Shown one piece after another: positions 1 to 8,827 of a DNA stretch of 8,827 nt (positions within the stretch are counted from its first letter, which is position 1; every line of letters starts with the position of its first letter). Under the pieces are notes generated by a model. That model did not search any database. It had not been told where the DNA came from and saw only the letters and a program-made list of their open reading frames with translations. This DNA comes from a virus (lineage: Duplodnaviria > Heunggongvirae > Uroviricota > Caudoviricetes). Both the position numbers and the translations under genes were made by a program. The DNA is taken from the IMG/VR virus record IMGVR_UViG_2667527792_000005, one strand, 5' to 3'.

Positions 1-101
1 ATACTTTGCTGCATCCGCGTTGATCCCTGATGCAGGGTGTTCCACCACTCCACGGAGTAATGAATAATCGGCAGATTCACCACGCCAATCAGCACCAGGG
101 T
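1..101 (-). pseudogene. ccmC: Internal shard of a ccmC-like gene (cytochrome c heme exporter CcmC); runs off the window start and is cut at ~99-104
   Basis: Minus-strand translation [32 protein letters not shown] matches the C-terminal WWNTLHQ region of E. coli CcmC as I recall it. Immediately 5' of this (plus >101) the translation becomes [26 protein letters not shown], which does not match CcmC, with in-frame stops beyond. Confidence 0.55.
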
Positions 102-212
102 CGCGCCAATGACCTCGCCGGTCTTAACAATTTGCACATTCCCGTCGCTCATCAAGTTTTTCGCATCAGATCCCATGATTTATTCCTTTGCTGCATCTGT
201 GTGCCTTTATTG

Positions 213-2069
213 CTACCTAAGTGTAAAGGCTACGGAGGATTTATCCACGACAGATTTGAGATGGTGGCAAACAACTCTGTTTACTATGTCTTCTACGATT
301 ACGGGATCTGCGACTTCGCCAGTTTCATCACTGCAATCGCGATGCGGATCGCTGCCAGCATTCTCATTGTGCGGATGTTCAGCGCCTTCCATTTCCTCCG
401 GATCATTTTCCTTAGCTTCAACCTGACTCTCTTCATCGAATGTTTCCTGGTATGTTGCGTCGCCCATCACCGCACCACAGTCAGGGCAGTTATCCCCGCC
501 AGTCTGGCCGCAGGCATTGCAGGCTATTTCCGGTTCCTGTTGCACTACTGGCTCAGGTTGATTCATATCTGGGCTGGTTTTTTCCGTTTCTGGCTGGTTC
601 TGGTACACACAATCGCGAGTCTGGATCCCCTTTACCCATTTCGGATCGTTCGGGTCGCTAATTCCGTCAACAAATTCACCACGTGATGCAGCAAGCAATT
701 TATCGGCATCGACAGGATTTTTTGATGGAATGTTTTTCCGGGCTTCATGGAGTTCTGCCCGCAGTTCCTGATATTTCGCATCAACAGAATTTACCTGTGA
801 CTGAGCATCCAGCGGCTGCGTGTCCTGATGATGTTCAGTTGCGTCCGGTTCCATTGTTTCAGCCTCTCCCTGTTCAACTGCCGTTGTTCCAGATGGTTGC
901 GGTTTTTCTTCATCATCCTGTTTTCCTTCTTCTGTTACTCGCTGCGGCATCGGGGCAGAGGAGCGACCGCAGGCAATATCCACGATTTCCGGATCAGGGT
1001 TGGCATGATCGGTTTCAGTCAGTACTTTGTTCAGATATTCAGTGACGTGCGCGGGGATGACCTCGATCCCAATTGGTGCTTCTTTTACGGACGCAACCAC
1101 GATGGCGCGGGAATAATCCAGCCCGCCAGGCATGGTGATGAATTTGTCGCGGAAAACAGAAAAGGGCGGTTTATTTTCAGCGATAATTTCCTCAATGCGT
1201 TTAGCGTGTGCCGGATGAAGGTTATAGATGTCCAGATCCATTGAACGGGCCAGTACGCCAGTGGCTACGTCGCGCGCCAGTGACGTCAGATCGTGTACGA
1301 AACCTTCGCCGCGATCGGTGAGGTTTCCGCCGCCAGCATTAGCACCGGAAGCCGTGCAAGTGATGTGTGAAACACGATTACCCTTCATCCACTCTTTTGT
1401 CAGCAGTCCTCGATCGGTGTAGTCAGCGTTCAGGTATGCTTCGAAAAAAGCAGTTATCAGTCCCAGGTTTGAATTACCAGGATTAGGGAAAACTTTGTCA
1501 GTGTCACGAACCAGTTTGTGGAGTTCGCGAATTTCCAGCGGGTCGAGCAGGCTGGTTTTGTGGGAAACAGCCAGGGCAGTAACAGCCGGTAGTTCTTCAG
1601 CCCGAGCAATGTGTAATGCCTGGAGTCCGTCGCGTGAAACGTGCGTTACCGGTTTTTCGCTGCCGTGTTGAGCAAGCCAACGAATGGGCAGTTCCTGGCC
1701 AGAAATTGGGAGTAGCATATTCTCCTCAATCTCAGTCATGTCTTCGCCGTTGACGTTGGTATTGCCTTGATAGTGAGCGTTGTCTGGTGCTGCTCCCGGT
1801 TTTAGTTCCCATGTCATGGAGTCTTTGCTGAGTTGATAGCGTTCACTCCAGGTAAAATCGATCTCACCTTCAGCGGGCAGGTCATTAACGACAGGAAAAT
1901 TCGTGGCAACAGCTTTAAAATAGCTGCTCAGTTTTTTACCTGACTTAACGATCAGGTAGTCCAGAGTGGCACAGGTCGATTCAAAATCGTTGCTTGCCCA
2001 CAGGACGACGTCAGGTTCACCGGATGATTTTTTCGCTTTCCGTAACAGGAAGAGTGGTTTTGTGCTCAT
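213..2069 (-). CDS. recE: recE 5' portion: Rac-prophage exodeoxyribonuclease VIII N-terminal region. ORF is 618 codons versus 866 aa for the K-12 protein as I recall it; the C-terminal nuclease domain is absent. Similarity to RecE appears to end near plus 285; the last ~23 codons ([23 protein letters not shown]) look foreign
   Basis: Six-frame track ORF; N-terminus [30 protein letters not shown]... recognised as RecE; sits directly downstream of racC-ydaE-kilR in the known Rac order; acidic low-complexity middle and a [16 protein letters not shown]ys4 motif. Downstream in the same frame are stops at 213-215, 207-209 and 180-182. Confidence 0.8.
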
Positions 2070-2142
2070 TGTTTTTTAACCTCAACTCAGATTAAAATTC
2101 GTTTTGTTCAGTGAATGATCTTGCCGGATACACACTGTTCAT

Positions 2143-2163
2143 AGCCTGCGCCATACGCAGGCT
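2143..2163 (-). promoter_or_regulatory. Perfect 8-bp-stem hairpin (agcctgcg-ccata-cgcaggct) in the racC-recE intergenic region; not followed by a U-tract on the minus transcript
   Basis: Inverted repeat read directly from the sequence at 2143-2150 and 2156-2163, lying between the racC stop (2171) and the recE start (2069). Confidence 0.4.
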
Positions 2164-2170
2164 ATTTCTT

Positions 2171-2446
2171 TCAGATTTCACCTTTTAATTTCATTGCAAT
2201 TAGAGTTGCCAGAAATTCGGCTTTTTTTTCTGCGGGCAGATTCTTTCCGATATGCACCAGGCACATTTTTTTGACACCTTCATCAAGTGTTTTTACGTTG
2301 CCTGATGGACCATCGATATCAACCACAGTGAATGGGGTTTCTTTATTTTCTGTTTTAATTACGTAGCCAATGCGCTTTCCTTCCAGATTCACCTCGTGAA
2401 CAATGTCATCGGTAGTTACAACAGTGGCTTCATAATTGGTAATCAT
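2171..2446 (-). CDS. racC: RacC, Rac prophage small protein (91 aa)
   Basis: Translation MITNYEATVVTTDDIVHEVNLEGKRIGYVIKTENKETPF...MKLKGEI, 91 aa, matches RacC as recalled. Start chosen at the ATG preceded by AAGGAG with 6-nt spacing (plus 2444-2446), not the longer track ORF starting at 2494. Confidence 0.8.
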   Translation of the reverse strand: MITNYEATVVTTDDIVHEVNLEGKRIGYVIKTENKETPFTVVDIDGPSGNVKTLDEGVKKMCLVHIGKNLPAEKKAEFLATLIAMKLKGEI

Positions 2447-2520
2447 GTTTTTCTCCTTAATTAAGGTTGAGCGAATACCTGCCATTTCTGGCATAAATTC
2501 AGTTTCGAATAGTCAATTAA

Positions 2521-7358: not shown

Positions 7359-7412
7359 GAGGATTTTGTTATTGAAATTCTTTGCGCCACCAATGCTCTC
7401 TTTGTATCCCGC

Positions 7413-7610
7413 CAGTAATTTATCTGCCAGCAACGCATTTACGCGTAGATAGCCGTCCCAGGCAGGACGCTGAAATTGCACCAGATCGAGCCGATAATGA
7501 AAAGCGGGCCAGAGAACGGCATTGGAGAATTGGTTGTAGTATTCGTCAAGGTCCTGTTCGCTGAGGTTAAAAGAGGCCCACGTAATGTTACCTTTTTTCA
7601 CCTTTTTTAG
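7413..7610 (-). pseudogene. otsA: Internal shard of otsA (trehalose-6-phosphate synthase), ~65 codons
   Basis: Minus-strand translation LKKVKKGNITWASFNLSEQDLDEYYNQFSNAVLWPAFHYRLDLVQFQRPAWDGYLRVNALLADKLL matches OtsA as recalled. It diverges on both sides: 5' gives SPLSVRI with a stop instead of the OtsA N-terminus, and 3' gives AGYKESIGGAKNFNNKIL instead of the conserved DIIWIHDYHL. Confidence 0.75.
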
Positions 7611-7938
7611 AATACGGACTGATAAGGGTGATTATTGGCTCTGGCGACGGCTTTCAGAACCTCTTTCACCATTCTGGTGTGGACTTTCTGGTGCTCCAGG
7701 TTGTGTGACATGGGAACTCATTCTGGATGGTTACTCTGAAAGCTCATATTCTGCCACCCCCCGATTTGCAGCCGCCAGGCTGCCGTGGTTCAAGTCGCGA
7801 CTAATAAAAATAATCAGGTTGCCATGATTCAATGTACACCTTTCTCACATTCGTCTCCGGCATGAAAACGATGCACTCTTTCTTTATCGCTTTCACTACA
7901 CATTTTATCCTCGCATGGATGTTTTATAAAAAACATGA

Positions 7939-7967
7939 TTGACATCATGTTGCATATAGGTTAAACA
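7939..7967 (+). promoter_or_regulatory. Candidate sigma70 promoter of eltA (TTGACA -35 at 7939-7944; weak -10 around 7961-7967)
   Basis: Perfect TTGACA hexamer ~85 bp upstream of the eltA ATG, with an AT-rich stretch 16-17 bp downstream. The -10 assignment is uncertain. Confidence 0.35.
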
Positions 7968-8027
7968 AAACAAGTGGCGTTATCTTTTTCCGGATTGTCT
8001 TCTTGTATGATATATAAGTTTTTCTCG

Positions 8028-8720
8028 ATGAAAAATATAACTTTCATTTTTTTTATTTTATTAGCATCGCCATTATATGCAAATGGCGACAAATTATACC
8101 GTGCTGACTCTAGACCCCCAGATGAAATAAAACGTTCCGGAGGTCTTATGCCCAGAGGGCATAATGAGTACTTCGATAGAGGAACTCAAATGAATATTAA
8201 TCTTTATGATCACGCGAGAGGAACACAAACCGGCTTTGTCAGATATGATGACGGATATGTTTCCACTTCTCTTAGTTTGAGAAGTGCTCACTTAGCAGGA
8301 CAGTCTATATTATCAGGATATTCCACTTACTATATATATGTTATAGCGACAGCACCAAATATGTTTAATGTTAATGATGTATTAGGCGTATACAGCCCTC
8401 ACCCATATGAACAGGAGGTTTCTGCGTTAGGTGGAATACCATATTCTCAGATATATGGATGGTATCGTGTTAATTTTGGTGTAATTGATGAACGATTACA
8501 TCGTAACAGGGAATATAGAGACCGGTATTACAGAAATCTGAATATAGCTCCGGCAGAGGATGGTTACAGATTAGCAGGTTTCCCACCGGATCACCAAGCC
8601 TGGAGAGAAGAACCCTGGATTCATCATGCACCACAAGGTTGTGGAAATTCATCAAGAACAATTACAGGTGATACTTGTAATGAGGAGACCCAGAATCTGA
8701 GCACAATATATCTCAGGAAA
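8028..8720 (+). CDS. eltA: eltA: heat-labile enterotoxin (LT-I) A subunit, signal peptide plus A1 and start of A2; truncated after ~230 of 258 codons at N 8721/8723; no eltB follows
   Basis: Translation MKNITFIFFILLASPLYANGDKLYRADSRPPDEIKRSGGLMPRGHNEYFDRGTQMNINLYDHARGTQTGFVRYDDGYVSTSLSLRS...CGNSSRTITGDTCNEETQNLSTIYLR matches LT-A (not cholera toxin A). True start is ATG 8028, not the track's 7974. The expected continuation EYQSKVKRQIFSDYQSEVDIYNRIRDEL is absent. Confidence 0.93.
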
Positions 8721-8723
8721 NAN
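8721..8723. other. Ambiguous bases (n-a-n) at the breakpoint that truncates eltA
   Basis: Literal n at 8721 and 8723; unrelated minus-strand coding sequence follows. Confidence 0.9.
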
Positions 8724-8827
8724 CGCAGCAACTCAAGCTCCGCACCTTTTACCGTGCCGAGAATGGTGTAATCGGTCACGCCGATACGCTGCATTACGCT
8801 TTCAACCAGATCTTTCGCCAGAATCAC
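8724..8827 (-). other. Unidentified CDS shard on the minus strand ([35 protein letters not shown]); runs off the window end
   Basis: Open minus-strand frame with enzyme-like composition entering from the window edge and stopping at the N's. Not recognised from memory. Confidence 0.4.

Follow-up and report, generated by a model that had tools for sequence, protein, structure and literature searches.

The described phenomena closest to the stretch of DNA analyzed here, an 8,827-nt sequence held as IMG/VR virus record IMGVR_UViG_2667527792_000005 (hereafter the window, at its full length), are the translocation-type misassemblies, or false scaffold joins, of draft bacterial assemblies, together with the ligation chimeras of sequencing libraries. 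According to Page et al., both SSPACE and GapFiller work in a greedy fashion and may join sequences falsely; their pipeline applied these tools to the reads that failed to map in proper pairs and relaxed the thresholds to five pairs (PMC5320598). Such an improperly paired subset of reads is enriched in chimeras. The window resembled the false joins of short-read assemblies (PMC5320598) in that distant loci of the same genome were joined, N's stood at joins, the source was a fragmented draft, and its junctions were not reproduced in any other genome examined. It differed from them in having nine joins in 8.8 kb, compared with the 4–10 misassemblies per whole genome reported by Page et al. (PMC5320598), and in having five joins without an N and gene scraps of 54–198 nt. 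The N-free joins and the scraps indicated that chimeric reads or fragments were involved as well as mis-scaffolding.

Library chimeras formed by blunt ligation share with the window their junctions of 0-nt homology, random orientation, breakpoints in unique sequence and short fragments. These chimeras are normally singletons that are removed by coverage cut-offs, whereas here they had survived into a deposited contig, chained to contigs of kilobase size. Chimeras made by phi29 multiple displacement amplification (MDA) also join non-adjacent sequence in vitro, but most of them join nearby sequence in inverted orientation and show short microhomology; the partners in the window were separated by megabases or came from different replicons, with 0 nt of microhomology. 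Lastly, the eltA block of the window was, at 99.6–99.8% identity, a normal copy of the locus found on the heat-labile enterotoxin (LT) plasmids of enterotoxigenic Escherichia coli (ETEC), such as pE275a_90 and H10407 p666. On those plasmids, however, eltA runs into eltB and is flanked by remnants of insertion sequences (IS), whereas in the window eltA was cut internally and its block was butted to ileS and otsA without any IS sequence.

The source of the window was traced through a 618-amino acid (aa) open reading frame (ORF) that crosses one of its junctions, 283|284 (the bar separating the last and first positions of adjoining blocks). Looked up exactly among 153 billion indexed gene positions, this ORF had a single carrier, CDRT01000476.1 (8,827 bp) of the NCBI draft assembly GCA_001373215.1. 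The window is the whole of this contig, stored as its exact reverse complement. As it is record number 476, the whole-genome shotgun (WGS) set CDRT01 holds at least 476 records and is a fragmented, unfinished draft. We conclude that the 8.8-kb window is very probably not a real genomic feature but a non-biological chimera, composed of ten pieces that come from unrelated places on the chromosome and a toxin plasmid.

To resolve the ten blocks, the whole window was compared with 5,426 complete E. coli genomes by megablast, and local BLAST against reference loci and four targeted searches were added. In window order, with the strand of each, they were:

1–99, minus strand: block 1, an internal 99 nt of the 738-nt ccmC gene, running off the contig end; 100% identical to MG1655 2,295,740–2,295,838
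100–283, minus strand: block 2, the 5' 77 nt of ydhQ (100–176) and 107 nt of upstream intergenic DNA (177–283); 100% identical in strain 120899 and many others, 99.5% to MG1655 1,746,051–1,746,234
284–4201, mixed strands: block 3, Rac prophage from recE to ydaG, ending in intergenic DNA; 100% identical over 3,918 nt to numerous complete genomes, ETEC 504838 among them, with three single-nucleotide differences from MG1655 1,415,601–1,419,518
4204–4283, minus strand: block 4, an internal 80 nt of malF; 100% identical, an apparent mismatch at 4284 being the first base of garR
4284–4457, plus strand: block 5, an internal 174 nt of garR; 100% identical to MG1655 3,272,395–3,272,222, reverse strand
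4458–7357, mixed strands: block 6, ycaN-ycaK-pflA-pflB; 100% identical over 2,898 nt to numerous complete genomes, 99.2% to MG1655 949,431–952,334
7359–7412, minus strand: block 7, an internal 54 nt of yqeI; 100% identical, the gene being present in 3,087 of the 5,426 genomes
7413–7610, minus strand: block 8, an internal 198 nt of otsA; 100% identical to MG1655 once base 7412 is given to yqeI
7611–8720, plus strand: block 9, an LT-plasmid segment with eltA and its upstream region; 99.7–99.8% identical to ETEC LT plasmids (matches pE275a_90, B7A, H10407 p666 and CP024249)
8724–8827, minus strand: block 10, an internal 104 nt of the essential gene ileS, running off the contig end; 100% identical to a reference, 99.0% to MG1655 23,304–23,201

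A sequence-only reading of the window had placed nine gene-cutting breakpoints in it and had named ccm, Rac, garR, ycaN-pflB, otsA and eltA as sources. The block alignments showed that all nine breakpoints are real, each lying within 2 nt of the position it had given, and BLAST identified every one of the named loci as correct; the ydhQ, malF, yqeI and ileS blocks had gone unnamed. Genes were indeed cut at 16 of the 18 block ends, the other two being intergenic (upstream of ydhQ at 283 and downstream of ydaG at 4201). That the loci are far apart or on different replicons was also borne out. On the MG1655 map the chromosomal blocks 1–8 and 10 lie, in window order and on mixed strands, at 2.296, 1.746, 1.416, 4.245, 3.272, 0.949, 2.989, 1.981 and 0.023 Mb (a spread of 0.02–4.2 Mb in K-12), and the eltA block maps to ETEC plasmids.

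All nine chromosomal blocks were 100% identical to at least one E. coli reference, the end mismatches at 4284 and 7412 being bases of the neighboring block. In addition, the two large chromosomal blocks, Rac and ycaN-pflB, were both 100% identical in the same complete genomes (among them LD22-1, LD26-1, A38, MB15, PSJ-22 and 400660), which indicated that the ten blocks are compatible with one strain background; in LD22-1 these two blocks are about 0.43 Mb apart. With high confidence, we consider the isolate behind the contig to be an LT-positive (ETEC-type) E. coli whose own chromosome and LT plasmid supplied the ten pieces.

The junctions were not found elsewhere. The sequence-only reading had held that a reference genome or plasmid colinear across the breakpoints would speak against a chimera, and there was none across any of them among the 5,426 complete E. 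coli genomes, no adjacent pair of blocks being held together at any of the nine junctions. In a search with the whole window the best coverage was 44%, corresponding to the Rac block. Four queries that between them spanned all nine junctions (window 1–400, 4100–4560, 7260–7710 and 8620–8827) each found no genome (0/5,426) at the required coverage of at least 80%, and their best places were always one single block (46%, 38%, 45% and 50% covered). The ydhQ|recE junction had no exact match in the species-representative genomes of GTDB, as expected of a collection with one genome per species. The region of eltA matched 764 PLSDB plasmids, and no shared junction came from these either, although in this search the eltA block was queried alone, so that it tests identity and not adjacency.

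The ORFs called across the junctions led to the same contig. Three of these ORFs, which together cover five junctions, were recorded on CDRT01000476.1 only among the 153 billion gene positions, and the junctions were not reproduced in the independent genomes searched. The chimeric ORFs of the window were:

213–2069, minus strand: a 618-aa chimeric protein consisting of RecE residues 1–595 and a 23-aa tail from the DNA upstream of ydhQ, on one contig
4252–4482, plus strand: a short junction ORF (76 aa)
7317–7601, minus strand: a short junction ORF (94 aa)
8148–8771, plus strand: a 207-aa product in which part of EltA is linked, via X residues, to antisense ileS sequence

The nine switch points were 99|100, 283|284, 4201|NN|4204, 4283|4284, 4457|4458, 7357|N|7359, 7412|7413, 7610|7611 and 8720|NAN|8724. 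Five of these (99|100, 283|284, 4283|4284, 7412|7413 and 7610|7611) were free of N's and flush, with 0 nt of microhomology at each, as defined by the next base of the left parent and the preceding base of the right parent both mismatching the window. The only N's of the window, six in number, sat at the four remaining junctions (NN at 4202–4203, N at 4459, N at 7358 and NAN at 8721–8723). All four clusters were within 1 nt of a junction, for which the chance is about 5e-10, and N4459 stood 1–2 nt inside the ycaN block. All six N's occurred where the parental continuations differ (G/A, C/A, G/T, G/T, T/A and T/G), and the called bases beside or between them agreed with both parents (CG at 4204–4205, T at 4457, GA at 7359–7360, A at 8722 and C at 8724). 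For three of the joins the details were:

4202–4203, NN at the Rac/malF join: parents GC and AA; the next two bases, CG (4204–4205), fit both
7358, N at the pflB/yqeI join: parents G and T; GA at 7359–7360 fits both
8721–8723, NAN at the eltA/ileS join: parents differ (T/A and T/G) at the N's; A8722 is common to both

This pattern suggests unresolved consensus or ambiguity positions at a join in preference to a sized gap, although with six positions it is not statistically decisive. An interpretation of the N's as minimal-gap placeholders was discarded, as it did not fit NN, NAN or the position of N4459 inside the ycaN block. The N's of the original record may be flattened IUPAC codes (R, M, K, K, W, K) or consensus no-calls.

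The N pattern also bore on a proposal of the sequence-only reading that the sequence had been deliberately composed, for instance as a synthetic control or as leftovers pasted together by a submitter. Flush joins without overlap and blocks that are biologically unrelated would be consistent with such a record. However, the N's (NN, N, N and NAN) tracked parental disagreement and not a fixed spacer, the cuts were at arbitrary intragenic positions, and there was no complete target, primer-like end or spacer convention. Furthermore, the window is an ordinary numbered contig in the WGS set of an isolate, for which deliberate composition is unlikely. Overall we regard a composed record as very improbable.

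All 8,827 positions of the window were accounted for, with 8,820 called bases in the ten blocks, the six N's and A8722. As every position was assigned, there was no room for an IS end, an attachment (att) site or core, an adaptor or vector. None of the blocks or junctions in the window was bracketed by a pair of direct or inverted repeats, and there was no transposase or integrase among the precomputed Pfam hits on the called genes, whose families were all expected ones (Exonuc_VIII, KilR, YdaE, SieB, DUF1391, Flavodoxin_2, Radical_SAM and PFL-like/Gly_radical). Scans of the window found no tRNA genes and no Rfam matches. These data upheld the earlier statement that the breakpoints carry no IS end, transposase, att-like repeat or target-site duplication. 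Transposition had therefore left none of its marks at the junctions (no IS sequence or IS terminal inverted repeat, no Pfam transposase, no target-site duplication), nor had site-specific recombination of the prophage att or integron cassette type, as there was no integrase and no repeated att or attC core at block borders. The Rac block itself was without intR and without att ends. Microhomology-mediated joining or template switching, as in alternative end joining (A-EJ) or MDA, was not supported either, given the 0 nt of microhomology at the five N-free junctions.

A genuine mosaic element, or a rearranged region of the chromosome or of an LT plasmid that had captured chromosomal fragments in vivo, has in its favor that the virulence plasmids of ETEC are mosaics with an eltAB neighborhood rich in IS remnants, and that the contig was deposited within the genome of an isolate. 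We do not believe the window arose in this way, and the possibility is very slight, because nine junctions without an IS end, transposase, integrase, att-like repeat or target-site duplication, and without unassigned bases, would have to be explained. The pieces were as short as 54–80 nt and were internal scraps of housekeeping and essential genes, the nine chromosomal pieces were 100% identical to their parent loci, the N's coincided with junctions, and no junction was common to the window and the 5,426 complete genomes or the public gene index. Least credible of all was a real DNA molecule in the culture, a concatemer, extrachromosomal or integrated, in which random chromosomal and plasmid fragments were linked end to end in the absence of homology. 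If true, such a molecule would point to an E. coli isolate able to join blunt ends, an activity that it is not known to possess.

The features found were instead those of a blunt-ligation chimera, with no homology and no common restriction site at the junctions, and with the long-block end that was tested (pflB at 7357) lying in unique sequence. Proximity ligation of the chromosome conformation capture (3C/Hi-C) type was rejected, since no palindromic 4- or 6-mer was common to more than two of the nine junctions. Between the longer blocks lay two short linkers, malF|garR (4204–4458) of 251–255 nt and yqeI|otsA (7359–7610) of 250–252 nt, the ranges depending on the assignment of ambiguous edge bases. 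Each of these internal linkers contained exactly one blunt internal junction, and their near-equal size suggests that each was one chimeric read, of a constant length near 251 nt, that was treated as a contig.

These observations also had to be weighed against a single in vitro concatemer, in which sheared and end-repaired fragments of 54 nt to 3.9 kb were blunt-ligated into a molecule of at least 8.8 kb that was then read as one unit (a long read, a synthetic long read or a clone). Such a concatemer would be an artefact too, although one of the bench and not of software. The 0-nt microhomology at the five N-free junctions and the lack of a common restriction site would be expected of such a molecule, as would tiny pieces between kilobase-sized ones if small fragments were in molar excess. 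Long blocks ending in unique sequence and error-free sequence within blocks would also fit. On the other hand, N's exactly at four junctions and nowhere else point to a join or consensus step and not to read-through, and a record number of at least 476 implies a very fragmented assembly of short-read style. The absence of homopolymer indels relative to the references and the near-equal, read-like length of both linkers likewise spoke against one long unit. A single concatemer is thus unlikely, although we give it some weight.

We therefore favor an artefact of library preparation and/or assembly, which we hold to be the origin of the window in all likelihood, the exact producing step being left between in vitro and in silico. 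This assignment was made because a biological origin would need nine homology-free and element-free joins in 8.8 kb; such an origin was further disfavored by the internal gene scraps of 54–200 nt (including one of the essential ileS), by eltA being cut 84 nt before its stop codon and by N's standing exactly at joins. It agrees with the sequence-only reading, which had put forward assembly or scaffold concatenation, or a chimeric clone or read: the window turned out to make up one complete contig in a fragmented draft, and its junction ORFs were unique to that contig.

We infer as the most likely course that the artefact formed in a short-read draft when a greedy scaffolding or consensus step, guided by a small number of discordant or chimeric read pairs, strung together three ordinary contigs (3.9, 2.9 and 1.1 kb) with a few chimeric mini-contigs the size of reads. 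The linkers of about 250 nt would each be a single chimeric library fragment, produced by blunt-end ligation of short sheared pieces, which would account for the 0-nt microhomology. The one or two N's would mark unresolved joins at which the parental continuations disagree, and each N-free junction would be either a blunt join between fragments that was present within reads, or a place where the end of a read was abutted on the end of a contig.

Several points weigh against this reconstruction. The pipeline of Page et al. (PMC5320598) is a possible route to GCA_001373215.1, and the junctions presumably lack read support. The three long blocks appear to end in unique sequence and not in repeats, which is an unusual place for a well-covered graph assembly to break; at the pflB end tested, no word common to pflB and tdcE lay closer to 7357 than about 270 nt. 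To explain the flush joins 283|284 and 7610|7611, chimeric reads or end-to-end joining with zero gap has to be assumed. The placeholder of SSPACE is a single n, from which NN and NAN differ. Finally, the overlap-driven extension of GapFiller would not insert unrelated sequence (PMC3446322).

Two more specific variants were tried and rejected. GapFiller fill was ruled out as the source of the linkers of about 250 nt, as a 29-nt-overlap extension from a contig edge would follow the true locus (PMC3446322). Long blocks ending at repeat boundaries, in the manner of a de Bruijn assembly, were rejected for the pflB end, where tdcE is 75.6% identical and the nearest common word of at least 20 nt is about 270 nt away. 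The nearest 32-mer common to pflB and tdcE was at window 7055–7086.

The importance of these findings is practical only, as a warning and a matter of database hygiene. Gene-caller chimeric proteins from CDRT01000476.1 already sit in public gene and protein collections. Features that depend on adjacency are spurious (the truncated eltA, the fusion ORFs, the orphan gene fragments and LT beside chromosomal genes), whereas features lying wholly inside one block, such as the Rac genes, ycaK, pflA and the eltA promoter region, stay valid copies of known loci. A truncated eltA on a chimeric contig could mislead toxin typing, or inference of plasmid context, for the isolate.

The genes and gene parts within the three long blocks were:

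284–2069, minus strand: recE, 5' 1,786 nt (Rac block)
2171–2446, minus strand: racC (Rac block)
2521–2691, minus strand: ydaE (Rac block)
2691–2912, minus strand: kilR (Rac block)
3231/3354–3842, plus strand: sieB (Rac block)
3839–3994, minus strand: ydaF (Rac block)
4005–4139, minus strand: ydaG (Rac block)
to 4594, minus strand: ycaN, 5' 135 nt, a T of ycaN being replaced by N at 4459 (block 6)
4694–5284, plus strand: ycaK (block 6)
5366–6106, minus strand: pflA (block 6)
6298–7357, minus strand: pflB, 3' 1,060 nt (block 6)
7611–7711, minus strand: small hypothetical ORF, 5' 101 nt (block 9)
8028–8720, plus strand: eltA codons 1–231, 693 of 777 nt (block 9)

The contig lacks eltB entirely, together with the 3'-terminal 84 nt of eltA (27 codons plus stop). 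The eltA block had no 100% match in the complete E. coli genomes or in PLSDB, the best being 99.8% to CP024249. Compared with pE275a_90, the closest plasmid copy from a complete genome, it had three differences: T for C at 8023, five nt upstream of the eltA ATG; a silent change at 8600, in eltA codon 191; and a change at 8668 that makes EltA residue 214 Gly and not Asp, the only protein difference from the pE275a allele. Presumably Gly is the residue of the H10407 type at this position, which we take to be mature residue 196, a known polymorphic site of LT. The use of a rare LT-A allele as a tracer of a second, intact eltA was considered and dropped, because the difference was a single residue and the allele is likely widespread, in which case an exact look-up of the protein would give many contigs with no connection to this isolate.

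A 337-aa C-terminal PflB ORF with an internal ATG start (6298–7311) was found on 9 contigs, one NCBI entry of which says 'partial', and this indicated that other drafts also break inside pflB upstream of that ATG. As the yqeI fragment matches only 3,087 of the 5,426 genomes, the source strain carries the variable yqeH-yqeK region. In the Rac block, the longest ORF of sieB (3231–3842) encodes 203 aa, whereas the annotated protein in RefSeq and K-12 has 162 aa and starts at an internal ATG, position 3354; the longer form was called on at least 1,000 public contigs, and the difference is a start-codon annotation discrepancy that is not specific to CDRT01000476.1. The source strain also carries a Rac-type prophage that is 100% identical in several human ETEC isolates, 504838 among them.

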